This document shows, one piece after another, positions 413 through 37,915 of a DNA stretch of 64,000 bases. The first letter of the stretch is position 1; every line of letters begins with the position of its first letter. Where the stretch lies: positions 31,930,001 to 31,994,000 of the forward strand of contig OZ231126.1 in the NCBI GenBank assembly GCA_965153355.1. The letters run 5' to 3'. Source of the DNA: Flaccisagitta enflata (taxonomy: Eukaryota). The notes under the pieces were generated by a model that had not been told where the DNA came from, did no database searches, and saw nothing but the letters and a program-made list of their open reading frames with translations. The translations under genes were made by a program, and so were the position numbers.

Positions 413-563
413 AACAAGGCCGGATACACGGCAATACAGTCGCGGACGGTTGGGCAGGAGCAGTGATGCTAAAACCGATCGCAATTCAAAAATATTTCGG
501 ACGGACGGACCGACGGACCGACCGACACGGCAAGGTGTAGAGTCGCGTGTCCGCGACTAAAAA
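413..563 (+). mobile_element. Short Helentron-associated (HINE/DINE-1-like) element, representative of an abundant family (other copies near 2035-2163, 2791-3087, 3641-4752(-), 16946-17652(-), 39696-39911(-), 45719-45897, 59167-59413)
   Basis: Recurrent 5' motif AACAAGGCC(GGATACACGGC), internal (GACG/GACC)n microsatellite, terminal hairpin AGTCGCG-tgtc-CGCGACT followed by an A-run, and no TSD. This matches the described HINE/DINE-1 architecture. Confidence 0.6.
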
Positions 564-1829: not shown

Positions 1830-1877
<48 letters not shown>

Positions 1878-2699
1878 ATCTGTCTCTGTCTTTCTGTCCT
1901 TATCGTTGGCGTGTGAAGTTGCAGAATCACGGCGTAGCGACGATTTTTTGGCGAGTCGATGAAAGTAAACAAAAAAGTCGAAAACAAACAAAAGACTCTC
2001 AAAGGAAAAAAAATGAAAAGAAAAAAAAGAGACGAACAAGGCCAAAGTAGGCCAATACAGCGACGTGTGGATCGTTGAACGAATGCGTTACCGACAGACA
2101 GACAGACCAACCGACCAACCAACGGACACAGGCAGTTAGAGGGGTGCTTTGTCGCACCTAAAACGAAATGAAATAAGAAGAAGGAAAAAAAAAGAAACTC
2201 CCATTGAGTTTGACTGAGGGAAGCCTAACAAGGTCTGCCCGGTTAGTTTCATGAATGAAAAGGGGTAGGCGAGGGTTATTAGGGTGCAAGAGACGGACTG
2301 AGACTGAGTTAGAATGAGACAGACAGATGGACAGTTGGACAAATGGACAGATGGAAACATATGATTTTTTTTAATCTTTTATTTCTTTTATTCCATTTTA
2401 TGATTCTTTTATTTTTCTATTTTTGGACGATCTTCACGATTCCATAATCTTTTTAACAAGTAATTGTTACGGTATTTCATTATCATGTAGACCACAATGG
2501 AAACAAATCTACGGATTTTTTTGAGCCTTTCACGGCAATCGCGCTGATATATATGTTTTTGCTGAAATACATTAGATGAAAACAATTGAGAGATATACGG
2601 AAAAACTAAAGGCGGAACAGTAAATTGTACGAAGTAGAAACATTGGAACAAATGATTTAACAAAAGGGAAGGCACGAACAAACTAAAGAGAGAAAGGAA

Positions 2700-2709
2700 G
2701 GAAGGAAAA

Positions 2710-2789
<80 letters not shown>

Positions 2790-3331
2790 AAACAAGCCCG
2801 ATCAGGCAACGATGCGTCCTAACTTTGTCTCTGCTTGTATTGACTTTGGCGATCAACTTGGACGGACAGATAGATTAAAAAACATATGTAGTACCATAAG
2901 AGGCTCTCAATACATCCTAACGACTGTTTGACTTCATGCGTGACATCCTCGCGGCTGAAAATTGCCGAAAACTGCGATTTTCAAGAAGGCGTAACGGACA
3001 GACAGACCAACCGATCGACCAACTAACCAACGGACGGACGGACATACGGACAGAACATCTTATAGAGAAGCGAGGACACATCTAAAAAGAATGAAAGAAA
3101 GAAAGAAAGGAAGAAGGAAAGAAAGAAAGATGGAATGAAACAAAAGGAAGAAAGAAAGAAAGAACAGAAGGAAGAAGGAAATAAAGAAAGAAAGAAAAGG
3201 AAGAAAGAAAGAATGAAAGAGAAAGAAAGAAAGAGAGAAAGAAAGGAACAAGGAGAAAAGGAAGTAAGGAATGAAGAAAAGAAAGAAATAAGAGAGAAAC
3301 AAAGAAACAAAGAGAAACAAAGAAAACAGGA

Positions 3332-3407
<76 letters not shown>

Positions 3408-8739: not shown

Positions 8740-8859
8740 TCCTCCAGAGTTGTTCCCAATATCAGAACATCGTCCAAATAAAGAATTGCCCTGACCCCCT
8801 TTGAGCGGAGAAACGCGGCCAGAGGGCGGGTTATTTTCGTGAACAGGAATGGGGCTGTA

Positions 8860-11800
8860 CAGTACGTTTTTTCAAGCACTGTCGTACTTGGATATCACAA
8901 CTGGTCAGCCTTTTTTCTTTTGATACATGATGTTCTGAGCCTAAAATACGAATTTCATCATCTTAGCTTGTTAAAACCCTTCGCCGAAATCCATTTATCT
9001 ATCACTACTCCAAGGTGGTTGTGGTGAAAGTGTTGAAATTTGGTCACTTTGGGCTCAAAATCGGGCCACTTTGGTTCTGAAATTTGACCCCAAATCCATG
9101 AGATTATGAAACTAGAGCTCAAGAGCTAACCAGTGGTGCAATTCGCATGTTGCTATTGTTTTTTGTTCAGATTTGAGAGCATTTCAAAGATGGAAGGGTA
9201 TGAGGGTTTTTTACCAGATGAATTTGGTGGTCAATTTTGACATTTTTTGCAATTTTTGATATATCTCCGCTTTGGATAGACAAATTTAGATGAAATTGGT
9301 GACCAAATTGAAGAGTTTTTGATGCTCTTATTGAATCTGGTAAAATTTTTGATCAATATGACCCTCAAAATATTTGGGAGACTCTAGAAGCAGGTGCAAA
9401 GTAATTTTTTCGCCATTTGGCTACTTTCTTGGTCAAAAATTCAGGCTCGAGAAAAGACAAAAAATCCATGAGCAAATTAAACTACAGTGCAAGATGTAAT
9501 CAATGGTGCAATCACCATGTCGACATGTTAAAGCATATAGATTTGGCACAGCTTAAAAGATCAGCGGGTATGACAAAATATCATTTTTTGGTAATTTTGG
9601 TCATTTTGGGCTCGAACTTGGGCCACTTCACTTTATAAATTTGACCCAAAATCCATGAGATTATAAAACTAGAGCTCATGAGCTAACCAGTAGTGCAATC
9701 CGCAAGTTGCTATCTTTTTCTGTTAAGATTTGAGAGCATTTCAAAGATGGAAGGGTATGAGCGTTTTTTACCACATGAATTTGGTGGTCAATTTTGACGT
9801 CTTTTACAATTTTTGATATATCTCCGCATTGGATGGATACATTTAGATGAAATTGGTGACCAAATTGAAGAGTTTTTGATGCTCTAGCAGAATCTGTCAA
9901 AATTTTCGATCAATATGACCCTCAAAAATTTTGGGAGACTCTAGAAGCAGGTGCTAACAGGTCGCCCAAGGGCAAGACGTGGTCAGCGATACCCGTTGTC
10001 CTGCTTAGCATGATTGTGAAATGGAATGAGGGGAAGAAGGCAGTGGTTCCCGAACAAAGTCCCAGAATTCAGGGGACTTTTGTTTGTCCATCCGTCCGTC
10101 CGTCCGTCCATCCGTCCGCCCTCCAGGCCCTCTCAGGTCTGAAATCTACCCTCTCAGGCCTGAAATCAGCCCTCTCAGGCCACGAAACCTGTCCTCTCGA
10201 CCTTGAATCTGAGCAGGCAGATGTCAGGCCTTAGAGGGCAGATTCAAGGCCTGAGAGGGCAAATTCAAGGCCTGAGAGGACAGATTTCAGGGCCTTAGAG
10301 GGCAGATTTCAGGCCTGAGAGGGCATATTTCTGGCCTGAGAGGGCAGATTAAAGGCCTGAGAGGACCAATTTCAGGGCCTGGGAGGGCAGATCTCAGGCC
10401 TAAGAGGGCAGATTTCAGACCTGAGAGGGCCTGGGGGACAAACGGAAGGACGAATGGACGAACGAACGGACAGACGAATAAAAGTCCCCCTGTGTTCTTC
10501 AGGGCTTTGTCCCCTTTGGGGCCGCTGCCCAAAAAGTGAATCTTTTTCGCCATTTGGCTACTTTGGTCAAAATATTCGGGCACTTCCGAGATAGAGAAAG
10601 ACAAAAAATCCATGAGCAAATTAAACTACAGTGCAAGATGTAATCAATGGTGCAATCGCCATGTCGACATGTTAAAGCATATAGATTTGGCACAGCTTAA
10701 AAGATCAGCGGGTATGAAAAAATATCATTTTTTGGTAATTTTGGTCATTTTGGGCTCGAACTTGGGCCACTTCACTTTATAAATTTGACCCAAAATCCAT
10801 GAGATTATAAAACTAGAGCTCATGAGCTAACCAGTAGTGCAATCCGCAAGTTGCTATCTTTTTTTGTTAAGATTTGAGAGCATTTCAAAGGTGGAAGGGT
10901 ATGAGCGTTTTTTACCACATGAATTTGGAGGTCAATTTTGACGTCTTTTACAATTTTTGATATATCTCCGCATTGGATGGATACATTTAGATGAAATTGG
11001 TGACCAAATTGAAGAGTTTTTGATGCTCTAGCTGAATCTGTAAAATTTTCATCAATATGACCCTCAAAAATTTTGGGAGACTCTAGAAGCAGGTGCTAAC
11101 AGGTCGCCCACAAGATGTGGCCAGTGATACCTGTTGCCCTGTTTGCATGATTGTGAAATGGAGTGAGAGGGAGAAGGCAGTGGCCCGAAGGGAATAAAGT
11201 CCTCATCATAGGACTTTTGCCCATTCGTTCCGCCCGTCCGCCCGTCCATCCGTCCGCCCTCCAGGCCCTCTCAGGTCTGAAATCTACCCTCTCAGGCCTG
11301 AAATCAGCCCTCTCAGGCCACGAAACCTGTCCTCTTGACCTTGAATCTGAGCAGGCAGATGTCAGGCCTAAGAGGGCAGATTCAAGGCCTGAGAGGGCAA
11401 ATTCAAGGCCTGAGAGGACAGATTTCAGGGCCTTAGAGGGCAGATTTCAGGCCTGAGAGGGCAGATTAAAGGCCTGAGAGGACTAATTTCAGGGCCTGGG
11501 AGGGCAGATCTCAGGCCTAAGAGGGCAGATTTTAGACCTGAGAGGGCCTGGGGGACAAACGGAAGGACGAATGGACGAACAAACGGACAGACGAATAAAA
11601 GTCCCCCTGTGTTCTTCAGGGGCTTTGTCCTTGGGGCCGCTGCCAAAAGTGACCTGTTATTTGCACTTTTTGGTCAGATTGGCACTCTGAGATAAAGACA
11701 AAATCCATGAGCAAATTAAATTACAGTGCAAGATCTAACCAATGGTGCAATCGCCATATCAATATGTTAAAGTATATAGATTTGGCAGAGCTTCAAAGAT

Positions 11801-12436
11801 CAGTTGGTTAGATCTTGAACTGTAGTTTAATTTGCTCATGGATTTTTTGTCTTTTCCTATCTCGGAAGTGCCCGAATTTTTTGACCAAAGTAGCCAAAAT
11901 GGCCAGAGTCTAGAGTCTCCCATAGATTTTGAGGGTCATATCGATCAAAAATTTTAACAGATTCAGTTAGAGCATCAAAAAATCTTCAATTTGGTCACCA
12001 ATTTTATCTAAATATGTAAATTCAAAGCGGAGATATATCAAAAACTGTAAAAATGTCAAAATAGGCCACCAAATTCACTGATAAAATAACCTTCACACCC
12101 TTCCATCATTGATGAGCTCTCAAATCTTAACAAAAAATGATAGCAATATGCGGATTGCACCACTGGCTAGCTCTTGAGCTCTAGTTTCATAATCTTATGG
12201 ATTTCAGGTCAAATTTCAAAAGCGAAGTGGCCCCATTTTGAGCTCAAAGTGACAAAATTTCAACATTTTCACCACAACCACCTTGGAGAAGTGATGAATA
12301 AAGGGATTTCGACAAAGGGTTTTATCAAGCTAAGATGATAAAAATTGTATTTTAGGCTCAGTACATCATGTATCAAAATAAAAAAGGCTGACAAGTAGTG
12401 ATATCCAAGTATTACAGTGCTTGAAGAAACGTACTG
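8860..12436. mobile_element. Non-autonomous DNA transposon (3577 bp), about 630-bp imperfect TIRs, TA TSD (Tc1/mariner-like target), with an internal 1.14-kb tandem duplication
   Basis: Left end TA|CAGTACGTTTTTTCAAGCACTG, right end CAGTGCTTGAAGAAACGTACTG|TA. About 8860-9500 is inverted at about 11805-12436. No transposase ORF. Confidence 0.92.
9956..10535 (+). mobile_element. Second HINE-like family (ends GGGGCCGCTGCCC-AAAAA) with a ~21-bp CCTCTCAGGCCTGAAATCTGC minisatellite; duplicate copy at 11098-11648; relatives at about 4875, 36770, 37450, 40085, 41570, 48806-49280, 49860
   Basis: The empty site CAGGTGC-AAAG at about 9391-9401 compared with the filled sites at 9956 and 11098 shows insertion at an A-run with no TSD. 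Confidence 0.6.
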
Positions 12437-13025
12437 TACAGAGGCCAAAAGGGAGCACTAGGAATTCGTAGAGTATCCCTTTCCTAACAAAACGAAGAAA
12501 CTTGCGATGAGTTGGGTGAATTAGAAGGTGAAAGAATGCATCTTTTAAGTCTATGGTGGCCCCCCAATCGCCGGGGCGAAGGAGAGAGGCCACGTCTCTC
12601 ACAGTGTCCATCTTGAAATGGGGGGCTGAAATAAATTGGCTGTTTAGCGGCTTCAGATTTATTATTGGTCGAAAACCTCCGTCTTTCTTTGGGACTACAA
12701 AAATGTTTGACGTGTAGCCCAGGGAAAATGGAACTTCTTGAATAGCCCCCTTTGAAATCAGAGATTTTACCTCCTCCTCTATTATCAAAGTCTTCTCCTG
12801 AGAAAAGTGATGGCGACGGGATAGGTTGGGAAGGCTGAGGGGGGGAGGGCTTATGAACGGAATTTTGTAACCTTTTAGAGTGTTCAAAATAAATGGCGGG
12901 GCCTTCAGGTGATCTTTCCAGAAGTCCCGAAACAAACTTAAACGTCCTCCGACTATGGGTATTGTTGATGGCTGTCCCGGAGGAGGAAGGGAAGGAGGAG
13001 GAGGAGGAGGAGAATGGCGGCCTTG

Positions 13026-16047: not shown

Positions 16048-16632
16048 AGAGACAGAGAGAAATGGACAGAAGAAAAGGCAGCCGGTTGGGTGGTCAGTTC
16101 AAGACGTCTATCTTTTACTCCTGTCTTCCGATGTTTAATCTAATTCAGTCGCTCATTCATTCATTCATTCATTCATTCATTCATCCATTCATTCATTCAT
16201 TCATTCATTCAACGGACAAAGCGGGGTATAGAGTCGCGTAGCACGCGACTAAAAAGAAAAAGGTAACACTCGCATTTTGTATATGCATTCACAAACACAT
16301 ACTTGAACGCTCACGCTGATGCAGACTCAATTAAATTGATCGGAAACTTTCGAAGCATGGAAAATAGTCATACAGAAGTAAGTCGCCAAAAGAATCGGTT
16401 GAAAAAATCGCGCGGGGCGAGAGGAGCGAGACTTTGTTTTCTTTGTAACAAGGCTGTAAGAGTGAATATTCTTTTACTTGACAACATCGTTGACCCAAAC
16501 CAAAGCTCTGGATATAATTTTCTCGTACAAAAGTGGTCTTAATAGGAGGGGCGAAATGGGGCGAAATGACAATTTTTTGAGCGAGATGCGCGCGAAGGTT
16601 TGCGTGCTGCTAGGGAGCTTTCGCGCTGTGTG

Positions 16633-16812
16633 CCGGTATCGGCGATGACTCTCTCCAACGCTTGTTGCACGAGTCTTTCACTTTCCGCATCCAAAGCGGA
16701 AGTTGCTTCATCCAGCAGCAGGATTTTGGCGTCGACGAGCAGCGCGCGTGCGATGGCGATGCGCTGCTTCTGACCGCCGGACAATTTCACTCCGCGTTCG
16801 CCGACGCGCGCT
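16633..16812 (-). CDS. Isolated exon of an ABCB-type ABC transporter ATPase domain
   Basis: Acceptor TCTTCAG|, then [53 protein letters not shown] (signature, Walker B, D-loop). No other ABC exons were found. Confidence 0.85.
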
Positions 16813-19764
16813 CTGAAGATGAGACAGTCAGAGAAATAGCTGCTTAATTCTATATTCTTATGATATGTTGTACTGATTGAGTTTTTTTTTTGTTGTAAAA
16901 TCAATCTTTTTTTTTCCCTCCTTGGAGATTTTCTTGTTATGGTGGTTTTTAGATGCGTCCTCGCATCTCTATAAGAGGGTATGTCCCTTGGTAGGTCTGA
17001 ATGTCTGTCTGTCTGTCCGTCCGTAACGCGAAAATTTCAAAACACGATTTTCAAGGTTTTCTCTTCATTTCTATTCATGTCTCTTCCTGTCTCTTATATT
17101 TCGTATGTCTCTTTCATCTCTTTTGTCTCTTTTGTCTCCTATATGTCTCTTATGTCTCCTATATGTCTCTTATGTCTCATATATCTCTTATGTTTCTTAT
17201 ATCTCTTACATCCCTTATGTCTCTTATATCTCTTATGTCCCTCATGTCTCTTCATGTCTCTCTATGTCTCTTTTGTCTCTTCATGTTTCCTCATGTCTCT
17301 TCATGTCTCTCCATGTCTCTCCAAGTCCCTTCATGTCTCTTTGTGAGGATGAGGCGGGGGAGGCGTGGGGAGCCGTGGGGGGTGGGGAGGCGTGGGGGAA
17401 GGGGGGAGGGGTGGGGAGGCGTGGGAGCAGGGGTGGGGAGGCGCGGGGAAGAGGGGAGGGGAGGCGTGGGGGGGGGGGGTGGGGAAGAGGGGGAGGCGTG
17501 GGGGAGGGAGGAATCAGTTTATATTTTTGTCTTTATCTCTGTATCTTTATTTTTCATATCATTATATCTTAATATCTTTATATCTTTATAATTTGTAAGA
17601 AAATATCTTACATCTAAAGAGGACGCATCTATTGGACATCTCTTGGCCTTGTTCTTGTTATTTTTGTTTTTCTTGCGGTTTTTTTTTTTTTTTGTTTTTC
17701 TTGCTTTTTGTGGATCGCCAGATCCACTTAGTCCTGGGAGAGTTTTTACTATTTTATTTTTTTTATTATTTTGCGTGCTCACCTTTTCTTTTTCTTCTAT
17801 CTGGACGATTTCAGTAACAGACTCACACTTGGTAATGAAAAATTCGCATTTTCAAAATTGGATTTTTTAGATTGACTGTAGTTGAATCGTGAAAGTAGAC
17901 GTCTGGACGATATGAATCAGCTATTGTTTCAACTTAATGGCACCCCTAAAAGCCCACGGGGGGGAACGCTAAGGGGGGGGGGGGGTAAAAAAAATTTGAA
18001 AAAAAAAGTTAGTCTCAATAGATTCAGAATTGTTTGGAACGTACAAAATTCATGTTTTCAAAATTTCCATATTTTTGACAAAAAAATTTTTTTTTACCAA
18101 GTCTGTGCCGCGTCGAGCCTCTCGTCCCCTGAGGATTTATGGGGAAGGGGGGAGAGAGAGAATAATTCTGAAAGTGGTTGCAGCATTATCTATTTATCTG
18201 ACTCACGTAATCATTTGTACTGTAACTTGAGTTTACGGTAAAACCCATAAAGGCTAGAGTTGAAAAAGAATCAAGTCGAGCAGTGAAGGCAGCATCATCA
18301 TTTTGCGCGTGAAATGTTGAAAAACCGTAATTGTCCAAAATTCAACTCTCACTTCTTTGATCGTGCAAATCAGACAGAGCCAAGCCAAATTCATCTTGAT
18401 AGCGTACCACTAAGTTAGGCCAACATATATGGGTCATTGTGAATACATTAAGAACCTTTTCTGAGAAAAGTCCACAAATAATATTTGTTGGACGTGGATG
18501 GGACAATTAAATTGTTGAAAAACCGTAGTTGTCCGAAATTCAAAATCCTCTCAAACAAATTCTTTCTCTTACTTTTTTGCGCGATTTTTTTTTCAACGGC
18601 CTTCTTTCAGAAATGAAGGATGACCAAAGCCTATATCTGACGGCTCTTTCACCCATTATGAAGACTATATTGAACTTATTAGGTATTCCTATCAAATTTG
18701 TCCAAAAATGCCTGATTTTCCTCCTCCACTTCCATATGCTATAAATGTACAAAATTGAACAAGTTAAAGTAGCGAAGAGGATCGTATCTGTTAAACATTA
18801 CCAAATGGTAACAACAAATGTCCATGGTCCCTTAAAACATGGATTAGACCTCGAGATAATGCTTAAATACATACTGTTACATTTTTGTTACAGGAAAATG
18901 GAGTGTTTAAGTGACCTCGTATGGACATAATTTTCAAGAAAAAAAATAAGTCGACCTGCTTTAGCCCGCTAAAAATCATGCAAATATGCCTCCTTTAACA
19001 TTTAATGGTGACGATATCAATGACAAATCCCTAGTCAATTGATAATGCGCTCTCAGCCATGGGCTGGTCTGGGAAAATAGATGTGTGAGTCTCTTGCTGA
19101 AATCTTCCATCTTCTTTATTCTGTATTTTTCTTCATCTCATGATTGTGTGCTCACCTTAGTCTTTTGTTTTTGTTAGTGTTTTTTTATTTTACATGCTCA
19201 CCTTTTTGTTTTCTTCTTTCTTCTTTAATCTGTATTTTTTTTCTCATCTCAAGATTGTGTGCTCACCTTAGTCCTTTGTTTTTGATATTCTTTTCTCTCA
19301 AGATGTCTCCATAAATCTCTTTGTAAATCTTTTGTTTTTGCATCCTCACCTATTTTTCTTATCACATTCTTTAATTTTTTTTCATCTCAAGATTGTGAGC
19401 TCACCTTAGTCTTTTGTTTTTTTTTCTCTCAACATGTCTCCATATATCTCTTTGTAAATCTTTTGTTTTTGCATTCTCACCTATTTTGGGTGCTCACCTT
19501 TTCGTTTTCTTCTATCTTCTTTATTCTGTATTTTTTTTTTCATTTCAAAATTGTGTGCTCACCTTAGTATTTTGTTTGCGTCAGTCTTTTTTTCTATTAT
19601 TTTGCGTGCTCATTTTTATTCTTTTTATTGTTTTATTATTATTAAGAATACCCCCACCTTAGTCTTTTATTTAGGTTGGTTTTTTTTTTGTCACCAGATG
19701 TCTCAAAATCTTTTTCAATTCGCCTTTTGTTTTCTTCCCACTAATTGACATTAATTGACACTAA

Positions 19765-24057: not shown

Positions 24058-26906
24058 GTCGTTATTCTGAGGCACGTGAGCCAATTCGATTTCGCGATCG
24101 TGGGAAGCCACAAAGTTATCGATAGTTTTGATGGCGAGGGAAGCGCGCAGGTTCAAATCGAATCCCTTGATTTTCTCAAGCACTGGTTGGAAAGAGGCGA
24201 GATTCAATGAGAGGATGAACGGCAAACCAAACAAAATGTTCCGCGTGCCTGACACGGAAATCACTACAATACTCCGTTCTTCTTTCTCGACTTTTCCGAC
24301 TAACCTTCGAGAACGGCGCGCGTCTTCAGATTACCGAGTTTCCTGTTTTTAGCGAACAACCATCCTTTAAACTTGAAGGCGATCGAATGCATCGTCCGAC
24401 ACATCACATGTTTTGGAAACCTGCACATAATGCACAAAGAATATAAGATCAGCTTACCATCGATGGACTTACAAGAGAAAGCAACCTCAGCAGCAAGCGA
24501 GAGCGGATAGATGGCAAAAATGATGTTACCGCTTCTCGGCGTCCAGTTTGATAGCCTTGTTATAGGCGATGTAAAGGAACTTAAGCGTTGGGCGCACTTC
24601 CGTGTAATGAATCAGCGTGGTTGTTTTACCTGAGTGAGGCAAGACGTGAGGGAGAATATACATATAAATGACTCAAAGAGAGAAAATGAGTAAGGCATTG
24701 GGAGAATTAAAGAACAACCATCAAGTTATCCTTAACTTAAATTCGTCCGGAAAACTAACAAACGTTTGGACTTACTAAATAAAATTCCAGTTACTGGAAC
24801 TCATATTTGGGTATCTCACCAGTTCCGGCAAAGGCGTTGATTTTGATGACTTCGCCTGGATTGATGTCATTGCCGATGATTCGAAATTGTTCGTGAGTCA
24901 ATCGGAGAAATTTGTCGTTGGCGACGAACCGGACAAGGCTCTGTTGTCCAACGGCACGATCCGAGAACAACCGGCTCATCGTCTCGCGGTCCACCTGATG
25001 TGTTTCGAAGAAGGATGTGCTTATTAAAGTTTCATACATTTTACTGGAAGTTGAAACGATTTTGTCTTGACTTCTGTATTTGATTACAGCGCATTGCATT
25101 CCTGAACCTTTATAACATTCTGACGCGGGTATACTTCCACTCCGTTCTGACCTGCATTTTGTTTTCGAAAAAGTATATCACAGTGAAAACGATGTAATGA
25201 TGTAAATCTGGGACGTTGTACCGCCGGTGAAAAGCCAGAAAGAAAGTGGCAGCCGCGTAGAACAATTCCAAGATGAGATGCAAGGGAATGTCACCGGCAG
25301 CCAAGAGATGACGTAAGAGTGAAGAAGTCTCGTCCACGTCTGGAAAAGGGAATCGGGAATTGAGCGGGTAAAGGGATTACGAAGCAAGCAAACACGCAAC
25401 TAAATCACAGCGTCCAAATTCGATCACTAGCAACCACCATCACGCTAAGTCTCATTTGTATGCGACAGCAAGAATAAGGTGATCGAATGTTTCTCCAACT
25501 GAGTTGCAGACCAACAGACCTTGCGCGAGGACGAACATGGCGGCTAAGGCACACAAGGGGTGAGGCTCGGAGAGAGAAGAATCCGCCTCGTTCACCACCT
25601 CAATACAATCTTGAAGAGATTCTTGTTCCACGAACAGATTCTTCACTGCCGAGTAAGTGGACATCTGTACGAATGGGAATAGGGAAATGAGAATAATCAT
25701 CAATACGAAAGAATTGGGATTTCATGATCATGAATGATTCTATTAACCACATCCCTTCTCACCTGTTTCAAGACTGCCATGATTCTCGGAGTAGAACCAC
25801 CAGCGTTGGAAGGGATAAAAGTTTTCATCCTGCAATGACAAAGTAAATAAGTTTTAGTGACGTGGTACTCATTTGCAAACATTTGTTGCTTTATTCATTT
25901 GTTGCTTTATTAAATAGACAAGCGCAAGTACCAGACAAGCTTCTTAAATTGGCTTTTCACCTACGAATGAATCCAAGAAAGCAAGTCCCAACGCTCAGCA
26001 TTCCACTTTCAGTCATCATATCATCAATCTCCGTCTGGGTCTTCTTGAAGTGTTCCCCGCTGGTCTTCTTGTAGGCGTAGTACAATTTCTTGTGTGGCAT
26101 AAAAGATTCGTCAGAAATAAGGTCACACCACCGCCGACAGACACGATTCATGTGTAAGCAAAGGTCTGGAGAAGAAGAAGAAAAGTTTTAAGTGAGGACT
26201 GAGGACTGATTTTAGAAGCGTAAACTTACGATCTGTATCAAGCTATGTCTCGCAAATTTGGCATTTATACAACTTGATAATCTGGGGGGTTTGATGAAAA
26301 TAAAACTCCTACTAAAAGATGATTCATCAGCCATCACAGGGAATTCATCTCTACCGATGTAAAGAAGACGAGTGACAAAAATTTAAGCCCGCATATCATT
26401 GAAGAGAACTTTCAAAACCACATATCAATAAATCTTCATCTAAAATTCTTACCTCCATGTGGTATTTGGCAAAAGATGGTCTCCAAAATTTCATCGGGTA
26501 AATCATCGATTCCCAGAGACTGATGCTCTCCACCAGAGGCGGCTACACTCCCGTTTGAAGACGGACCGACTTTCCCACGATGACTCGAACCGAAACCGAC
26601 CGATGTCGAAGCCGAACTCGAGGGAGAGAAGGAAGAAGATGATGATCCAGGATTGGGCTCGAGATTTCTCCTCTGCCTCTTCGCTTGAGGGAACAACGCC
26701 GATGTCGATGAAGAAGTCGATGATGATGATTGACTGTCAGTGACGCTAATCCTCGATGACGATGATAAAGAGTGTGGATTAGTCTTTTCTTCTTTCCGCG
26801 GTGATACGGAAACGAATCCATCGAGGGTCGAGACTTTGATCTCTCGGGAAGCAGTATAGTGGCGGTATATGGATAAATTGTTATCACTGAAAAATGACGT
26901 AGACAT
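24058..26906 (-). CDS. FBH1: F-box DNA helicase 1, 5' portion (exons about 26906-26453, 26165-25961, 25829-25763, 25664-25520, 25339-25152, 24994-24820, 24629-24530, 24420-24305, 24182-24058)
   Basis: F-box (IDDLPDEILETIFCQIP..VCRRWCDLI..FMPHKKLY), Q-motif LTHEQ, Walker A AFAGTGKTT, motif Ia FLYIAYNK, CRTMHSIAF and KTIDNFVASHD. All GT-AG junctions are phase-compatible. The start codon is uncertain. Confidence 0.9.
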
Positions 26907-27391
26907 CAAGTGAAAAATCAGAACCGTTATTGGTTATATCCCTTACTGTTTTTAGGATTTGAGGGGAAGTTAAGAACATGAAAAATTGATAACATGAAAT
27001 AATTCTTTTTCCTTATTAACAAAATAATCATGAAGGCAAAAATTAGGATCAGTACTATCGCTTAAAGAATCGACCCCGAACTCTTTAAACGTTTAACATG
27101 TTTTCAAAAGAACTGAAACCAAGAGTCGAGCTTCAATCACCGAGCAAAACATCTTTGATCAGTGATCACCCTCTCGGTCAAATCTTCATTTTTCTTTAAA
27201 TACACTTCGATCAACGTAACATGCCATGCCACCACCAAAAATTAACCAAATATTTCCCTTCTTCATCGGATATCCTAGTCAATAAACAACCTCGTCATAC
27301 GCAGTCACATGCTTCTTTTTTCCCGCACTTTACTTTGGGTCGCCCAGACTTCTCTAGTTCGCGAGCGGGACGCGAGACGCATTTCAGCATT

Positions 27392-30300
27392 TCAGCATTT
27401 CTTGGGCTGTTGGATGGGGTGTTTGTTGGTCGGATGATGAGGATGAACTTTTGCCATTCTGGTGACATCCTTCGTAGGAGACGGCTTCTGATGAGCCAAG
27501 GAAGACGGCATTTCGCTGTGGTTCAGCTCCACCTTTGACTTGGTCGTCACTTGCACCTAGTAAAAAAATCTTAAAAGAGTATGTGTCCGCGACTGGCGTC
27601 ATACGGCGTTGTCAAACGGCGTTGTCAAACGGAGATGTCAAACGGCGTTGTCAAACGGCGTTGTCAAACGGCGTTGTCAAACGGCGTTGTCAAGCGGCGT
27701 TGTCAAAACGGCGTTGTCAAAACCAACGTTATCCGACGGTTGCATCGCTGGCGTTGTCAAAGCAGAAAGGCGTTGTCCATAACGTTGTCATGCGAAGGCG
27801 TTGTCAGAAGTTGTCAAGGAAGGCGTTGTCAAGAGGCGTTGTCAAAGAGAAGGCGTTGTCAGGTGGCGACTCAAGGCGTTATCAAAAGGCATTGTCAAAG
27901 TGTTGTCAAAGGGTGTCAAAGGCGTTGTCAAAGAAGTTGTCCAAGTTGTCAAGGAGCGTTAAGGGCGTTGTCAAAGGGCGTTGTCAAAGGCTTGTCGGCG
28001 CAGCTGTTGGTTGCCCAATTAACTATAATCTTTACAAATCAAATATATATTTGAAGTCCTTCCATTTAGAGACTACATACCAAGTTTTAACCAAATCGGT
28101 TGAAAAATGCCAAAGTTATGCGTTTTACTTTGGAAAACAGTTGGGTGGTTGGCGGTTTGTGGTTGGCATGCTAAAATCTTTACAATTCAATATATATGTT
28201 GAGTCCTTCCATTTGGACTACATACCAAATTATAACTAAATCAATTAAAAATGTGGAAGTTATGCACGTTTTTCACTTTGAAGCTAGTAGGCTGGTTGGG
28301 TAGTGAGCCGGTTTGGCCAGTTAGCATGCTGAAATCTTTGCAAATCAAATACATATTTTGAGTCATTCCATTCTGAGACTACATACCAAGTTTTAATGAA
28401 ATTTGGTTGAAAAATGTAAGTTATGCTACAATTTTCACTTTTGAGCTGGTAATCTGGTTGGGTGGTGGGCCGGTTTGGCCGGTTGGCATGCTAAAATCTT
28501 TACAGTCATATATGTAAAGGTCTTCCATTTTAGAGACTACATACCAATTTTAGCAAATTGGTGAAAAATGCAAAAGTTATGCACGTTTTTCACTTTTAGG
28601 CTGGTAGGCTGGTTGGGTGGTGGGCCAGTTAGCATACTAAAATCTTTACAATTCAAAATCCTTCCATTTAGAGACTACGTATCAAGTTTCAACCAAATTG
28701 GTGGAAATATGCCTAAGTTATGCACGTTTTTCACTAAGAGGCTGGTTGGGTGGGGTGGTAGGCCAGTTAGGTGGGTGGATATGCTACAAGCTGCACAGAG
28801 CAGACACATACATTGAGGCCTTCCATCCAAATAAAGCATACCAAATTTCAGGCGTATCAGTTGAAAACTGACATAGTTATGCAAAAATAGCAGGCGACAG
28901 CGGCAAACGGCGGCAAGCGACAAACGACGACACCCACCCGCCTCGAATTATAGTCCGCGTCGGAATGGTATTCCGTCGACCGTCGCTGACAAAAAGGGAG
29001 GGGAGGTCGGGGAAGAAAAGGAGGGAAGATCAACTGGAATTCTGTCTTCAGCTTATCATCGCGCCGCCGGGAAGTCGTAGCCTTAATCATGAACACATGT
29101 TTCAATCACACCGATAAGCATGTTCGCGCGTGATACCAAGACTGACAATTAGCCTCTCAATTATCGGTAGCTAGTTACAAAGTTTCTGCTAAATAATAGA
29201 CACTTTGTAGATGCAGCTTAGTACTTGTGAATTATCCGGATCGCCTTTGGCGAGTTCCTTGTCGCCTTCGTTTTTGTTGTTATTATTATTGTCGGCTGCG
29301 GCGTCCGGATCTCCTTCCGGAGCTTCGATGGACGCTTCCTTCTTCCCGGCGCTGGAATCGGATTCACTCTTTCTGGCGCTGGAGACTCGACGCCGGCCGC
29401 CAACTTTGATGGCGGGTGGATGACCGCCTTTCAACTCGACGTTTTCGTTGTTGTGATTGACCGCCTTCGATTTGGGCGACGCGGCGTTTTTGCCTTCAGA
29501 TGGAGGAAAGGAAGGGAAAAAGAGGGGGAAAAAGATGATGTTGAAAGGTTAGGCCATGCTACAATGGAGCACCTCGCGGCATAAAACAAATTTGCAGCGT
29601 GACGGACGAAATTATAGAAAGGGAGTAGGAGAGGATAAATACTGAATATTACATGTGCGTTGATGGAGAAGTCTCATTTGAGCCCTTGGGGAGAGAAGGG
29701 GGAAAGTAGGCTGTTCAATCACATGATGACATGATGCCATGACTGAAGATCTAACCTTTGGTCGCCTCGACGGCGGTTTCTGCTTCAATATCGTTGTGAT
29801 TTTCATCTTTCTGTTGCCTCGGAATTGCGGCTTCTTTTCCTCGATTCTTGCCTCCCGCGTCTTCCGCCTTTTCCACGTCTTGTCGGGCGGAAATGATGAT
29901 CGCTTCCGCCACTTTGTCCGCCAAAGCGTCAACTTCGTCCTTTTCGCTGATCTCGCCTCCAGCAGCGGCAGCAGCAGCAGCGCTTCCCGCGACTCTCGGG
30001 CGACGAGGTGGCCGAGGCTTGGAGGATCTCTTGAAGGCGGCTTTGTCGACGGCGTTGTTGTTGACGCGGATGCCAGGATCAGTGGCGACGGAATTTTTGG
30101 GCGTGCGCGCATGATGAAGCACATCGTCTTCCGCGTAAACGTGAGCGGCGCGAACTCTGACGCCGCTGCCACGAGGGGCACCGCCGCGACCCCCGCGTCC
30201 GCGTGCCGCATTGGATCTAACGCCGCGATTGCTCGAACGGGAAACTTCGTTCTCGACCACTTCCTCCGCGTAATTTTCCTGTTTATTGATTGGTCATGCG

Positions 30301-33300
30301 TTGATTTGACTAAATCTCGCCTGAACAAAAAGCGGCTCGCTCTTTCGCCCGGTATATTTTCTTTTTTTGAAATTAAACAATTTATGTTTTCTTTCATTTC
30401 TACTTTCAATCCAAGAAGATAGTCCTTGCTCTCAAATCTAATTCAGCTCATAGAGATTTTCTCCCACAAGTACAAACGTTATTCAGGCAACAATCCTGAT
30501 TAACACACCTTATCCGTGGACTTCTTCCTGCCTTTGGCGGTGACGGGACGTTTCCGTCTTTCATAGTTGGACGGTGCTATATCATCGACTGTTTCTCCTT
30601 CTACGCTGGAGACCGAAGCTTTGGGCCTCCTTCTTCGAGGCGGTCTCTTCTGAGCGGCAGCGGCAGCACCAGTGGCCGCAGCAGCGCCAGCGGCGCCGGC
30701 GGTGACGGGTCTCCTCTTGGTCTTCACCTGTGCGCCGCCATCGTAATCAGCGCTAGAAGTGGAAGCCGTCTTCTTTCTCCGCGGCTGTTGTTGTTTGGCA
30801 ACGGGATTCCTCTTGTTTCGCGCCGCGGGCTTTTTCTCGACGACGTCGGCCTCCACGCTGAAGACGGACGCTCTTCCGGCGCCACGCGGCTTGTTATTGG
30901 CGCCGGGTCTCGTCGCTTTCTTCTTAGACGCAGCAAAGGCGCCACCGGCAGTCTCAGCGGCACCGACGCCGCCGTGGCGCTCCTTCAGTTGCTGCGCCGC
31001 CTTGAAATTGCAGCAGTTGACACCGAGCTCTTGGCATCTTTGACAGAATCGGCTTTCGTGCTTCTTGTTAAGACTTTTCATGTGCTTTGGGAAGAGGAAG
31101 GCGCCGCAATCGCAATCGATTCCACGCATAGCCTCAGTTTTGGAGAAGGAGTAACTGTAAATAGGGTGGTGGAGTAGAAAGAAGAAAAATGCGGATGGCA
31201 AGGTGGTAGGGTGGGAAGAATGGGGCAATACGGCAAAAGTTTTAATTACTCAAGTTGGTATGTCATTTGAAATAAAGTACAAAAGCTTAAAAACAACAGT
31301 CCTCGACTGTTGTCTATTTGGTGTCCGACCCGGCTAATCAGTCTGACCCGGCTACTCAGTCTGACCCGGCTACTCAGTCTGACCCGGCTACTCAGTCTGA
31401 CCCTGCTACTCAGTCTGACCCGGCTACTCAGTCTGACCCGGCTACTCAGTCTGACCCGGCTACTCAGTCTGACCCGGCTACTCAGTCTGACCCGGCTACT
31501 CAGTCTGACCCGGCTACTCAGTCTGACCCGGCTACTCAGTCTGACCCGGCTACTCAGTCTGACCCGGCTACTCAGTCTGACCCGGCTACTCAGTCTGACC
31601 CGGCTACTCAGTCTGACCCGGCTACCAATTGCATACCTTAAAGTCCAAAAAAAAAATTTTTTTCAAAAAAAAAAAAATTTTTTTTTCAAAAAAAAAAAAA
31701 AAAAAATTTTTTTTTCAAAAAAAAAAATTTTTTTTCAAAAAAAATGAATTTTTTTTCAAAAAAAATGAAATTTTGGCTAAAATTAGTTATAGATGTCTCA
31801 TGAGGGGAAGTGAGGGGTAGTGAGGGGTAGCTAGGGGTGGTCAAAAAGTGAAGGGTGGTTTGAAATTATGTAGGGGTAGCGAGGGGTGGGGGGGGCGAGG
31901 GGTGGGGTAGGGCGAGGGGTGGGGCGAGGGGTGGGGTAGGGCGAGGGGTGGGGTGAGGGGTGGGGTGAAGGGTGGGGTGGGGTGAGGGGTGGTTCGAGGG
32001 GTAGTGAGGGGTAATGAGCTTTTAACTTGATAAAGCCCTTAACCTTAAACCTAACACAACCCCTAACCCTAAATCTAACACAACCCTTAGCCCTAAACCC
32101 AACACAACCCCTTACTCTAAACCCAACTCAACCCCTAACCCTAAACCCAATACAACCCCTAACCCTAAACCCAACACAACCCCTAACCTTAACTTTAACA
32201 TTTATATCCAGCTCTAACCTTATTTAAAAAAAACACTAAACCCAACACAACCCCTAACCCTAAACCCAATACAACCCCTAACCCTAAACCCAACACAATC
32301 CCTAACCCTAAACCCAACACAGTCCCTAACCTTAACCTTAACATTTATATCCAGCGCTATTCCTAATTAAAAAAACACTAAACCTAACACAACCCCTAAC
32401 CCTAAACCTAATACAACCCCTAACCTTAAACCCAACACAACCCCTAACCTTAACCTTAACATTTATGTCCAGCCCTAACCCTAACTAAAAAAACACAACC
32501 TTAACCTTTAATTTGAAATCATAACCCTGCATAAATAACCTGTATTAATAACCTGCATAAATGAAGTGCCTTCGTGGGAAAGAGTTCGGGTCTGTTTTAA
32601 GTTAGTCTTAATAAGGTTTAACATTAAGGACTAAACATAAGTTAAGGGTTAGGGGTTGTGTTTGGTTTTGGGTTAGGGGTAGTGTTGAGTTTAAGGTTAC
32701 AGGTAGTGTTGGGTTTAGGGTTAGGGGTAGTGTTGGGTTTAGGGTTAAGGGTTGTGTTAGGTTTAGGGTTAAGGGTTGTGTTAGGTTTAGGGTTAGGGGT
32801 AATGTTGAGTTTAGGGTTAAAGGTAGTATTGGGTTTAGGGTTAGGGGTAATGTTGAGTTTAGGGTTAAGGGTTGTATTAGGTTTAGGGTTAAGGGTTGTG
32901 TTAGGTTTAGGGCTAGGGGTAATGTTGAGTTTAGGGTTAAGGGTTGTGTTAGGGGTTGTGTTGGGGTTAGGCAAATTTCAACTTGCTTAAGGTAAAAGGT
33001 TTTGTTTTACCACGAATGAAATATTTTACTTGCTATGGGAATATATATATATATCTGCAAAATGTTTCTTTTCTCTAGGCTGTAAATTAAATGATAGCTG
33101 TGCATTTTTAGTTTGAACCACCACCCTCCCCCACCACCACCCTTTTTGGTTTTTTGAATCATGAAATTCCTTGAACTTAAAGGTATTGAAACTGCAACAT
33201 GTAAATGAGATTTTTGTATTTTTTGTAAACTAGCAATTTTATTAAATTTTTGAAGTATAAAAAAGAACCGAGGGGTTGACCCAGTGGTAGACCCGGAGGT

Positions 33301-36300
33301 TGACCGAGGGGTAGACCGAGGGGTAGACATTTTCATTTTAGCTTAAATAATAGTCGTGTATTTTATAAACAATTTCAGTTTGAACCACCACCCTCCCCCG
33401 CCACCACCCTTTTTGGTTTTTTGAATTATGAAATCCCTTGAACTTAAAGGTATTGAGACTGCAATATGTAAATGAGATTTTTGTACTTTTTGCAAACTAG
33501 CAATTTTATCAAATTTTTGAAGTATAAAAAAACTGAGGGGTGGGTGAGGGGTGGACCAAGGGGTGGACCGAGGGGTAAACTGAGGGGTAAACCGAGGGGT
33601 GGGAGGGGCAAACCGAGGGGTGGGAGGGGTAAACCAAGGGGTGGTCTTTCAACTGATGGGTGGGAGGGGTGGGGCAGGGGTGGTCTCACCACCCTCGTCC
33701 CACCCCTCCCACCCTCGCTACCCTACATGAGACATCTTTAACTAATTCGATCCAAAATTTTTATTAAAAAAAATTTTTTTTTAAAAAAAAAAATTTAAAA
33801 AAAAAAAAAATTTTTTTAAATTTTTTTCAAAAAAAAAATTTCTTTCAAAAAATTTTTTTCAAAAAAAAAAAAAATTAAATCAAAAAAAAAATCTTAAGTC
33901 CAGGAAATAATGTCACTAGATACAATATAGATAATTTATATTTTCTTAACCAATACTCAGAATTTACTGAACTCTTGCAGGGGAGCTTTAATTGCTGCAA
34001 TGAACCTTCACAACAAGTTTGAACAACATTGGTGAACCATTACTACCCTTCCCCTATGTAGAATGCACAAGTCCAGGAATCAATATTACTAGCAAAATAC
34101 CCTAATATCTTCTAAACCAATTCTCAGAATTATCCGAAATCTTGCGGGAGAGCTTAAATTGATGCAAGTAACCTTCACAACAAGTTTGAACAACATTGGT
34201 GAACCTTTGCTACCCTTCCCCTATGTAAATTGCACAAGTCCAGGAATTAATATTACTACAAAAATAATAGGCAAAGGGTATTAAATATTTATGAATGTTG
34301 TTGAAAGTTGGTACACAGGATAGTAATGCTGTAAAAATAACACTGACCAAGTTTCATCAACATCTGAGTACTGGTTCCCAAGTTTTTAAGGGTTGACACG
34401 ACAAACAAACAACAAACAACGACTCACTACACGATCAGTGCTATGTTATAGTCCTCGACGTAAACTGATCGTCGAGGACAAAAATGTAAGCAAAAGGACC
34501 TCCTTTAGAGAATGTTTTTTTTTCAAGATGAGGATTCTTTTATTAGGATTTTTTTCAAAAGCACCACCATTCAATATATCACCGCGCATCTCTTCTCTCT
34601 CCTTCCCCTAGAGCTCTCAACGACTTCGCTTTGCTGTCATACTCTCGATCGCTTCTCTCTATTCATCTCTTTGTCTCTCTCTCGCGCCGCATATAATTAC
34701 AGATGGACGATGTTGCAGGTATCGCATGGAAACTCCCAGTCCGGGTAAACGGCAGTTTTGCAGGTTTTGCAGGTGATCCCCTGGTGGGCGTCGCCATTGC
34801 GGTAAGACTCGGCGATGTACTGGTCGCAGTCCACGCAGAAGAATTCGTATTTGCGAGACTTGGGGATTTGGCGGAAAGGCAAGACCCAAGTCTGACGGCG
34901 CCTCGAAGAACACGGCTTGCATAGCTGACCAGAGTTGGCCCACGAATACACGCTAGACCATTCGTGGGAACAAACCTGTCGAGGCAATTGGTATAGGCTG
35001 TTTCTATAATCTCCTTTTTGAGAGATGGCCAAATAGGTCAATTGAAAAATTGAGAAAATTTGTCAAAAACATTCATAATCAGATAGCTTATATCAATATG
35101 AAGATGGCTCAAAAACTGAATTTTGTTACTGATCCTTGATTTTCATGTAAATTAGGCTGAAATACAACAAATAATGATCGAAAATAAGCCAAAATTGAGT
35201 TGTTTAAGTCAGCAAAACCAAAAAAATGGGAATATTTTACTAAATCAAGTTCAAGAATTCAATCAGACCCATTCTGCTGAAAAAAATTGAGATTTCAATT
35301 TTTTGGAAAATTCTCTATAAGCAGCTTTTTTGGCTGGTTGGGCCAGTTGGCAAAAATTTACTGAATCTTTCAGCAACGATTAATTTAAGTAGGCATTCTC
35401 TAAAAGAACCACTGTGCAAAATTTCAGCCAAATCGGACAAATATTTTAGAAGTTATGCCGTTTTTTAAAATTTTTGGGTGGTAGGCTGGTTGGGTTGGTT
35501 AGATGTGTCCCAGATGCACCAAATGCTCTGTTCATAATAGTTTCAGTACAGTATTGATCCATGCAAAAAATCTTTTGTCTCTCTCAAAGGGTTTCCAAGA
35601 TATGGGCATTTCGTGATTTTTATGGTTTACCATTTTGCTGTAAGTGCATACATGCGCCAATAACAAAGAATTAACTACGAAAATTCATCTTGAAGCGTGA
35701 TTATTCTGCAACAATTTACTGACCAATCATATTGAAAATTTCATTATGGCTAAATGCCCGGGAGTTAATACCAAAAATTTTCAGTGTAAATGCAAAATTT
35801 CATGCTCTTTCTCATCGTGTTATCCAAATTTCCATCATCAGTTTCACAATGGCGTGACACTGACAGACTTGAAGCGTGACATGAGCGTGACAGAAGAGCT
35901 GGGGGGGGTGTGCGGAATAATCACGCTTGAAGAAAAGTGTCATTACGCGGGATTGGGGTGTCACAGTGGCATGAAATTTAGAGCATAAGTCCTTCAAGTA
36001 GTCTTCTATTAGATAGAAACCTGAAAAGTGATTAACTTTGAGAATTTATAGTGTTTTACAAAAAAGATAATCGGCATACTCAGATTTTGCCATGAAATAG
36101 CAAAAAAATTAGAAGGATCAAAATTTGAAGATAATACAATATATGAACAACTTAGCATTTGCGCAGTAGGATGAAATTTTTTGCACATCACATCGGATTG
36201 ATGATAACTGATTAAAAGCTGAGAAATGATCAGATGATCTATTTTTTGATAGGTTTTGCTTGTTATTTGCTTGTCCGGACAAAATCCGGACATGACAATG

Positions 36301-37915
36301 TGGCCAATTTGACCTAATTTTTAGGCCCCCTAGGGGTAGGGGTAGTCACAAAAAATGGTTTGGCAAGGTAATCCAGGTAGTTAGGAAGGTCATCCAACTA
36401 TAAAAACTTGTCACAATGCAATAGACATTGCGGTAACACTGTTAACGTGGTGGTGAGTTGGGTTCTCGCGTCGAAAAGAGATTGTGACATTAGCCTATAC
36501 GCGAATAATTCAAAATAACAGTTCTTAATAGATTTTGGAATTCTTTCATACACTTAAATCTTAATGGAGGTTAACTGGTTCGAAGGAGTGGCAATCCGTG
36601 GAGAATCTAAGTGTATATATGCGTGTACATATGCCGTCATTAGTCTATTATTCCTTTCATTTTAGCATTATTTCCTTCATTATTCCCCTCGTTATTTAGA
36701 CTATTTCCTTCATCCTATTTTGTTTAGCCTCCTTTAGCATCGTTTGAACATTTGCTCATGATATTTTCCTTTTTGGGCAGCGGTCCCAAAGGGCCGATGT
36801 CCTGTATGACACAGGGGTGAATTTCCATATGTCCGTCCTTCCGTACGTACATACATACGTACGTCCCCCCCCAAGCTTCTTAATTCTCGAATTCCCATTA
36901 AATAACATGGGAAACTGACAAAATGCAAACTTCCCATTGAATAATATGGGAAAATGACAACTTGCAAACTTACCATTGAATAAACATGGAAAATTCTTAA
37001 AAATACATATTTCCCATCGAATAACCTGGAAAATTAACAAAAAATGAAAGAAATTGTAGAAAATATATAACTCATTGAATATCATAGAAAATTGCTCAAA
37101 AGGCCTGAAATATGTCTTCTCAGGACGTAAGGAAATTCGCCCCTGTGTCCTACAGGCAGGGGCCTGTAGAGGCCTATACACCCTATACAAATTATAGGGG
37201 CCCGGAGGGCCCTTCAATTATTATAGAAATGAAAAGGAAAAAAAAAAATTTTCTATTTTTTAACAGTTCAAACTACTTAATTCAACACTTGGACATTCTT
37301 TTTCGAATAGAATGTACAGAGACTGAAAAGTAATCCATATAAAAACTACCTGTGCTATTATCTCAGCCGGCAATCACGCTAAAACTAGGGGGGCCCGGAT
37401 TTTTGGATTGTATAGGGGCCCGAAATTTCTCGGCTGGCGCCCCTGCCTACAGGACACCAGCCTTTTGGGGCCGCTGCCCTGCTCTCACTCCACTTCTTCA
37501 GCTGATCACTCCAAGCAGGACATCGGGTACCACTGACCATGTGCAATCCTTGGATGACTTGTTCTCTTTTGCTTTGATCATCAGTTTCTACAAAAATCTC
37601 ACCACGAAATACATGGTCTTTCGTTACACCGAGTTGGTCGATTCATATTGCGTGGCAGACAGGGTCGTAGGCCTTCGAGATAGTTCTAGGCCCAATCACA
37701 CCTGTTCTTGCGCAAAATTCTCGTAAGAAACCCGGTGAAGCTATTTCCCCTTTTTTTCCCACCTGACATTGAAAAAACCCAATGCAGCAGCGACTGCCTT
37801 TGTACGGAGTGGCAGCGGCGGAATCCTCCGGCTGCTTCTCCTCATAGGCCTCGCTGCCGCCACTGGGACGCTGATGACGAGGACGACGCTGACGACCGGA
37901 CTTGCTCAACGTCAT
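27392..37915 (-). CDS. 3CxxC zinc-finger (ZCCHC24/ZAR1-like) - DAP/DAPL1-like fusion protein, 676 aa (exons 37915-37763, 34975-34701, 31154-30509, 30278-29756, 29493-29225, 27556-27392)
   Basis: N-terminus PYKGSRCCIGFFQCQVCSHEWSSVYSWANSGQLCKPC...KHESRFCQRCQELGVNC. C-terminus LKGGHPPAIKVGG...AHQKPSP...IQQPKKC*. Five GT-AG introns with phases 0,2,0,1,0 give a 2031-nt stop-free CDS. Confidence 0.8.
27605..27995. repeat. Minisatellite of ~14-bp unit GGCGTTGTCAAAC in the last intron of the 3CxxC-DAP gene
   Basis: Visible tandem array. Confidence 0.9.
31281..34484 (+). mobile_element. 3.2-kb HINE/Helentron-like element carrying an 18-bp tandem array (GTCTGACCCGGCTACTCA, 31325-31625), G-rich tracts and telomere-like arrays
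   Basis: 5' AAAAGCTT...CAGTCCTCGAC, 3' hairpin GTCCTCGACG-9nt-CGTCGAGGAC-AAAAA (34451-34484). Confidence 0.6.
32036..32972. repeat. Degenerate telomere-like arrays: CCCTAA-type (32036-32510) then TTAGGG-type (32640-32972)
   Basis: ~24-bp units containing AACCCT / TTAGGG hexamers in opposite orientations. Confidence 0.85.
34996..36495. mobile_element. Probable non-autonomous DNA transposon with degenerate TIRs and TA flanks
   Basis: TA|GGCTGTTTCTATAATCTCCTTTT versus AAAAGAGATTGTGACATTAGCC|TA. Confidence 0.4.

Follow-up and report, generated by a model that had tools for sequence, protein, structure and literature searches.

A spliced gene of Flaccisagitta enflata fuses a predicted ZCCHC24-type zinc finger to a DAP module

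We analyzed a stretch of 64,000 nucleotides (nt) from Flaccisagitta enflata, a marine planktonic animal (contig OZ231126.1 of assembly GCA_965153355.1, positions 31,930,001 to 31,994,000 of the forward strand), referred to here as the window. On its minus strand, from 37915 to 27392, lies what is almost certainly a single spliced and expressed protein-coding gene, in which a zinc finger, predicted to be of the ZCCHC24 type, is fused to a DAP module. We take the fused gene to be real on the evidence of RNA joints between exons, independent proteins, an architecture conserved among relatives, and the absence of a methionine ahead of the DAP part. The fusion combines known kinds of domain. Narrow literature searches, whose scope did not extend to the extended DAP alignment of the egg-ribosome paper (10.1101/2021.11.03.467131), returned no published description of a zinc-finger/DAP fusion.

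The gene model was rebuilt from the sequence. Six exons of 153, 275, 646, 523, 269 and 165 nt, in order from exon 1 to exon 6 (Table 1), total 2031 nt and form one open reading frame (ORF) of 676 amino acids (aa) plus the stop. All borders consist of a GT donor and an AG acceptor, and the exons are entered in phases 0, 0, 2, 0, 1 and 0. This reproduces the six exons, matching phases and 676-aa ORF of an initial annotation of this DNA, and the three DAP motifs claimed there are present in the spliced product (KGGHPPAIKVGG, AHQKPSP and the terminal IQQPKKC). The product has four parts: an N-terminal zinc ribbon at about residues 36–194, a linker, a complete DAP module comprising the last ∼125 residues, and a free C-terminal QQP[KR]K(C) tail. 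The linker, described initially as ∼360 aa, basic, disordered and containing RGG, is indeed of that kind, with about 350–360 residues, RGG boxes and an isoelectric point (pI) of about 9.7. The 5' untranslated region (5'UTR) reaches upstream to at least about 38014, and the 3'UTR continues below the stop in exon 6.

Two features of the reading frame bear on how the DAP module can be made. Translation beyond the exon 3 donor yields DKVC and then a stop, four codons into intron 3; a stop soon after exon 3 had been noted initially. Exons 4 and 5 have no in-frame methionine, as had also been claimed. In the numbering of P0001, one of the independent proteins described below, residue 168 is the last methionine ahead of the DAP motif and the next is residue 636. 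There is therefore no AUG translation start in these two exons.

To assess splicing, we used assembled metatranscriptome contigs, a kind of data that does not show expression level or rare isoforms. Parts of 27392–31200 were present in 16 of the 17 public runs listed. The best five, each a marine metatranscriptome, contained 0.31–0.34 of the sampled words, and 1603 of the 3809 bases (0.42) are exonic. Four runs were aligned onto 27300–31300. A 3117-nt contig (X1, study P1, 2016) and a 3000-nt contig (X5, study P2, 2025) each span exons 6-5-4-3, with joints at 27554/29223, 30277/30508 and 29492/29755, the last of which is displaced in X1 by a few variant letters. At each joint the plus strand shows CT..AC, corresponding to GT..AG in the sense of the gene. 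Hence the junctions placed initially at 30509/30278, 29756/29493 and 29225/27556 are crossed by RNA contigs from two studies. The exon 6 region (27300–27554) was covered by contigs, and intron 3 showed no depth past the exon edges in the aligned RNA contigs. At the other end, the matches of X1, X5 and X9 (a 594-nt contig from a third study) stop exactly at 31154, after which the contigs run on for 557, 570 and 414 letters, respectively. Exon 2 (275 nt) together with exon 1 and 5'UTR would account for these lengths. The raw reads of X17, another of the four runs, yielded three reads of 90–95% identity in the 5' part of exon 3, too few to be informative.

Independent proteins provided a second test. 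An exon-2 query for longer proteins gave 14 matches from 15 candidates, in Logan, JGI, ENA and MERC assemblies. Relative to the spliced model, P0001 (674 aa) has 10 substitutions and a 2-aa deletion and is identical at 664 of the 676 residues. All five junction peptides occur in each of the five full-length proteins of the same species (two from Logan, three from JGI), which match at 664–667 of 676 residues; exons 1 and 2 are therefore verified too. Partial proteins from MERC contain the exon 3/4 junction in four of four cases. Both long contigs and all same-species proteins share a deletion of 6 nt at 30691, which keeps the frame and falls within the exon 3 alanine run. Together with the ∼10 amino-acid differences, mostly in the linker, it looks like population or strain variation.

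The architecture is retained in relatives. Among the 14 exon-2 relatives, 11 are full-length orthologues (548–695 aa) with MTLSK, an N-terminal zinc finger and an intact IQQP at the extreme C-terminus. Two others are truncated fragments, and the last, P0003, loses frame at a GHPPA motif. P0029 and P0022 (707 aa) carry as their only extra 33 upstream ORF residues, colinear with the 5'UTR in the window. In an alignment of 14 full-length sequences, with 45–60% identity to P0001, conservation was 0.90 for the zinc finger, 0.94 for the DAP N-terminal motif and 0.88 for the DAP C-terminal tail, compared with 0.25–0.48 for the linker outside three conserved islands. The MTLSK start is invariant (14/14 orthologues), each orthologue has a methionine-free stretch of 137–383 residues upstream of the DAP motif, and the pI of the linker falls between 9.2 and 9.8 in all 14. 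When 5.8 billion clusters were searched by profile and 8000 candidates scored, at least 16 family members emerged; all 16 lack a real protein name, and NCBI and UniRef contributed none of them.

Table 1. Coordinates of the coding exons of the fused gene and of the conserved islands of exon 4
Feature	Coordinates	Strand	Description
Exon 1, coding part	37763..37915	-	ATG at 37915; starts MTLSK and ends with the first zinc-finger cysteines; GT donor after 37763
Exon 2	34701..34975	-	Zinc-ribbon core with several CxxC pairs; PF17180, E 2.8e-4
Exon 3	30509..31154	-	Second half of the zinc finger (ZCCHC24_C-like, 31001-31150), then a basic Ala/Lys/Arg-rich linker; PF23490, E 3.4e-3
Exon 4	29756..30278	-	Disordered linker; RGG box 30180-30203; three conserved islands
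Exon 4, island 1	30069-30143	-	HVYAEDDVL..TPKNSVATDPGI; conservation 0.85
Exon 4, island 2	29886-29936	-	Predicted helix, EVDALADKVAEAIIISA; conservation 0.86
Exon 4, island 3	29799-29822	-	PRQQKDEN; conservation 0.94
Exon 5	29225..29493	-	N-terminal half of the DAP module, with VELKGGHPPAIKVGGRRRVSS.RKSES at 29360-29440; PF15228, E 1.4e-5, 26.3 bits
Exon 6, coding part	27392..27556	-	C-terminal half of the DAP module: AHQKPSPTK at 27470-27496, tail HPHHPTNKHPIQQPKKC at 27395-27445, stop at 27392-27394

For domain assignment, Pfam was searched at E ≤ 1 with single exons, at E ≤ 0.1 with 14 orthologues and at E ≤ 0.05 with 10 orthologues scanned singly; the gathering cut-off is 27 bits for PF15228 (DAP), PF17180 (Zn_ribbon_3CxxC_2) and PF23490 (ZCCHC24_C). 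The DAP family was detected in 11 of the 14 orthologues. When orthologues were scanned singly, it was found in seven of 10 and undetected in three, with scores of at least 27 bits in two (28.9 and 28.8). The match always spans positions 1–98 of the 98-position profile and ends 1–2 residues short of the C-terminus. Exons 1 and 6 alone gave no Pfam match at E ≤ 1. Searching 177,635 PDB sequences with the family profile returned, at E ≤ 10, only Dap1b (7oya_s1, E 3.4e-4) and Dapl1-B (7oyc_s1, E 0.1), both from egg-ribosome entries (7oya, 7oyc). The exon-5 motif PAIKVGGRR lies in the alignment to residues 10–48 of Dap1b (E 3.4e-4). Exon 6 aligns end to end with residues 83–113 of the 113-residue Xenopus Dapl1-B (7oyc_s1), with a 7-residue insertion ahead of the tail; at E 2.7 this match alone is not significant.

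Several residues of the family motifs are fixed. G554, H555, P557, A558, K560, G562, G563, R564 and R565 are invariant in 14/14 sequences, as are I668, Q669, Q670, P671 and K673 in the tail. As described in the egg-ribosome paper, the DAP motifs are P-A-V-K-A-G-G-M/K-R at the N-terminus and I-Q/H-Q-P-R-K/R-x at the C-terminus (10.1101/2021.11.03.467131). The module shares with Dap1b, Dapl1 and DAP the pattern PA[VI]K[AV]GG[KR]R, a central (AH)QKPxPT and a terminal IQQP[KR][KR]x that includes the Gln pair and the extra last residue. It is also basic, proline-rich and predicted to be unstructured, like the known members. Yet those members are stand-alone proteins of ∼15 kDa (10.1101/2021.11.03.467131), whereas here the module forms the C-terminal part of a 676-aa fusion and lacks its own start codon. 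A serine-rich, acidic-flanked RKSESEG beside the DAP N-terminal motif is conserved, and a similar SVSSVEGE is repeated in the linker.

Few ordinary DAP relatives came up in the searches. An exhaustive exon-5 search of representatives gave seven matches: five members of the fused family, the window's own unspliced exon, and P0020, which has a stand-alone-like DAP N-terminus with a methionine eight residues ahead of the motif. Shorter, stand-alone relatives were sought with the DAP part of P0007, and the one match among 694 candidates was a fragment of the fused family. Because these searches returned almost exclusively the fused family, the link to ordinary DAP proteins comes from the Pfam and PDB profile matches only. 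A search for orthologue DNA in metagenome contigs with the family alignment gave 34 pattern stretches, none of which was confirmed.

The N-terminal domain was also assigned by profile. PF17180 matched all 14 orthologues (E ≤ 1.8e-4, best 6.7e-7) and all 10 scanned singly, where two matches scored at least 27 bits. PF23490 matched 13 of 14 (E 7e-4 to 1e-2, all <27 bits), covering positions 13–31 of its 35-position profile, and was seen in nine of the 10 single scans, in none at the cut-off. The ZAR1 model PF13695 had no match (E ≤ 1 for exons, 0.1 for the 14 orthologues, 0.05 for the 10 scanned singly). In the ESM Atlas, residues 30–200 fell nearest to a cluster labelled 'ZCCHC24-like' (score 0.91, 193 of 256 features shared), and a query with the whole protein gave no usable match. 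Among the few labelled members of the nearest zinc-finger clusters, Arthropoda is the commonest phylum, a weak hint to the host group, and 23–28% of the members of these clusters also have PF13695. Profile matches thus support a ZCCHC24-type finger. Of the initial label 'ZCCHC24/ZAR1-type 3CxxC', the first half stood; the ZAR1 half did not.

Compared with ZCCHC24 itself, the predicted finger keeps PF17180 followed by PF23490 in that order. It differs in an extra block of ∼50–70 residues with CxxC pairs between the two signatures, and in its N-terminal position, with ∼480 more residues after the domain. ZAR1 and ZAR1L, oocyte mRNA-storage proteins, appear to share a cysteine-rich zinc ribbon of the 3CxxC type, but PF13695 has no match in the window exons at E ≤ 1. 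ZCCHC24 binds motifs in 3'UTRs, as detected by photoactivatable ribonucleoside-enhanced crosslinking and immunoprecipitation (PAR-CLIP) (PMC11624195).

Most of the protein appears to be disordered. In an AlphaFold2 model of P0001, computed from the 14-sequence alignment, 566 of 674 residues had a predicted local distance difference test score (pLDDT) below 50, and moderate confidence was confined to residues ∼92–144 and a helix at 468–496. Such a low-confidence model is consistent with a mostly disordered protein. The predicted helix of island 2, EVDALADKVAEAIIISA, may resemble the amphipathic helices of AKAP proteins that dock protein kinase A. For island 1 (HVYAEDDVL..TPKNS..DPGI), which lies beside the RGG boxes, a likeness to part of SERBP1/HABP4, the other dormancy module, was considered and found no support: it had no such Pfam match in the exons or the 14 orthologues, and no SERBP1/Habp4 chain in the PDB matched exon 4 or the family profile at E ≤ 10. 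A hemojuvelin match of exon 4 in the PDB was low-complexity noise, as was a Med3 match (E 0.17), leaving no Pfam family on this exon.

What could such a protein do? The C-terminus of Dap1b/Dapl1 inserts in the ribosomal exit tunnel, past the position of the last residue of a nascent chain; binding requires an invariant Dap Gln, which makes contact with the eIF5a hypusine; and crosslinks place the conserved Dap N-terminal motif close to Rpl31, at the exit (10.1101/2021.11.03.467131). The initial annotation had likewise placed the DAP C-terminus in this tunnel in dormant egg ribosomes, in agreement with that source. According to the same source, invertebrates have one Dap1, and the forms that bind ribosomes have one extra last residue. 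The window protein retains both Dap motifs, the Gln pair, the extra last residue (IQQPKKC) and a free C-terminus. By analogy, its DAP module would work as Dap1b/Dapl1 do, with the tail lying in the tunnel with nascent-chain polarity. We consider it an even call whether the tail binds the exit tunnel in this way. Given that polarity, the 550-residue N-terminal extension would exit at the port and need not interfere, and we therefore infer that the fusion is topologically compatible with plugging. With such a cargo, the tail would have to enter C-terminus first from the exit side, or else stay in the ribosome of its own synthesis (self-plugging in cis).

Outside the ribosome, the zinc finger and RGG part would bind RNA, and bound mRNAs (or rRNA) would be coupled to blocked ribosomes, giving co-storage or transcript-linked silencing. 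Such a link between mRNAs and silenced ribosomes, put forward in the initial annotation as an mRNA-tethered ribosome silencer, is a tentative proposal that we consider less likely than not. Doubtful, and more so, is the most specific version, in which one polypeptide might plug the tunnel while holding selected mRNAs at the exit port, as a single-protein co-storage particle for eggs or dormant stages. There is a precedent for tunnel occupancy by factors other than Dap. Rei1 and Nog1 are large, consist of several domains and insert a tail formed by the C-terminus. Both are listed among the ribosome factors inserted in the exit tunnel (10.1101/2021.11.03.467131, Extended Data Fig. 8 legend). They show no sequence relation to the window protein, serve 60S maturation rather than dormancy, and have no RNA-binding zinc finger.

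The interest of the fusion lies in the load it carries. The DAP family is known from small, free peptides by which the exit tunnel of stored ribosomes is blocked, and the fused form bears a large cargo predicted to bind RNA. A natural fusion of this kind would probe whether the tail can insert into the tunnel despite an N-terminal load, and hence from which side it enters, as well as whether the silencing of ribosomes can be tied to particular mRNAs. Since the transcripts come from marine metatranscriptomes of several studies, it may bear on the biology of plankton eggs and resting stages. If the tail fails to bind ribosomes, what is left is an unusual domain fusion of moderate interest.

Several observations weigh against parts of this picture. 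The window protein scores below the 27-bit cut-off for all three families (PF15228, 18.1, also the score of P0001; PF17180, 23.6; PF23490, 16.7), and exon 5 alone reaches 26.3 bits for PF15228. Unlike in ZCCHC24, no CCHC zinc knuckle was detected, with no zf-CCHC match at E ≤ 1 for the exons, E ≤ 0.1 for the 14 orthologues or E ≤ 0.05 for the 10 scanned singly. The AlphaFold2 model has a mean pLDDT of 39.6 and gives no structural support. Drosophila Dap bound no rabbit ribosomes (10.1101/2021.11.03.467131); with this result and the Arthropoda hint from the Atlas, ribosome binding by the window protein cannot be assumed. On the transcript side, one ORF on 11 ENA contigs, which may be DNA or RNA, comes with intron 3 unspliced, and exons 3 and 4 are called as separate ORFs in ENA assemblies (P0023/25/30 and P0021/24/26). 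A minor zinc-finger-only or DAP-only transcript may exist, since contigs drop rare isoforms.

These points feed into four other explanations. In one, the fusion is real but its DAP module is non-ribosomal, serving phospho-regulated signalling or autophagy and placing an mRNA-binding zinc-finger protein under nutrient control. DAP is described as regulating cell death, and mammalian DAP as a negative regulator of autophagy (10.1101/2021.11.03.467131). The conserved acidic-flanked serine motifs, RKSESEG and SVSSVEGE, and the Drosophila result would fit such a role. However, conservation is strongest in the two motifs that contact the ribosome in the egg structures, with the Gln pair and the free C-terminus among the features kept, and we judge a purely non-ribosomal module unlikely.

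Another explanation keeps ribosome binding and recasts the N-terminal part as an extra anchor to the ribosome or a partner (rRNA expansion segments or exit-site factors), so that the protein would be an enlarged hibernation factor. The basic character found in every orthologue, the predicted disorder and the three islands between finger and DAP module are all compatible with an anchor, and mRNA binding by the finger is itself a prediction. Yet ZCCHC24, to which the finger is closest among named proteins, is an mRNA 3'UTR binder (PMC11624195). We regard an anchor as improbable too.

Two further explanations concern the transcript. There could be two forms, with the fused protein as the major product and an intron-3-retaining, zinc-finger-only isoform ending in DKVC, so that the presence of the DAP tail would be controlled by splicing. 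The unspliced ENA contigs and the stop four codons into the intron speak for such a switch; but those contigs may be genomic DNA, and two RNA runs have no depth in intron 3, which makes a second form quite unlikely. Still further down, a pair of adjacent genes (a zinc-finger gene ending at the DKVC stop and a stand-alone DAP gene, with the joined ORF a product of read-through, chimeric assembly or chance phase) would account for the nearby stop and the separate ENA ORFs, and contigs cannot prove one transcript, but we consider it highly improbable given the GT..AG joint of exons 3 and 4 in contigs of two studies with no intron 3 depth, the same joint in nine of nine same-species proteins (Logan, JGI and MERC), a fusion retained in 11 full-length orthologues, the lack of a methionine for 137–383 residues ahead of the DAP motif in 14/14, and exon 4 islands conserved at 0.85–0.94.

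The introns of the fused gene contain repeats. In intron 5, summed contig depth reached 550–3365 over 27568–27701, 27970–28103 and 28506–28639, versus 15–39 over exons. The repeat units there are a 13-nt tandem array (27598–27721) and a 162-nt tandem or SINE-like (short interspersed nuclear element) unit (28023–28735). Because many of the pieces fit two places, this depth probably derives from expressed copies elsewhere. Intron 2 holds, at 31323–31625 and 32036–32971, an 18-nt tandem array of 16.8 copies with 98% identity and two opposed arrays of 24-nt units made of TTAGGG-like hexamers.

A second minus-strand gene begins ∼485 nt downstream of the stop. Its ATG is at 26906, in a serine-rich exon (26453–26906) that ends DDLPDEILETIF and has a GT donor after 26453; the next exon starts from about 26176 and continues ...RVCRRWCDLISDE. 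By eye, this gene appears to be F-box-like. Pfam gave no match on its exon 1 alone. Contigs X1 and X5 run 871 and 741 letters beyond 27300 and, if colinear, would enter exon 26453–26906, which could mean overlapping or read-through transcription.

Rfam returned nothing in the window at gathering scores. Two other features were recognized on the minus strand. A DIRS-like retroelement occupies 6553–8894 and 12366–13025, with RVT_1 matches (E 2.5e-9 and 8.9e-6) and a Phage_integrase tyrosine recombinase (E 2.6e-6), and an ATP-binding exon of an ABC transporter lies at 16539–17036 (ABC_tran, E 5e-11).

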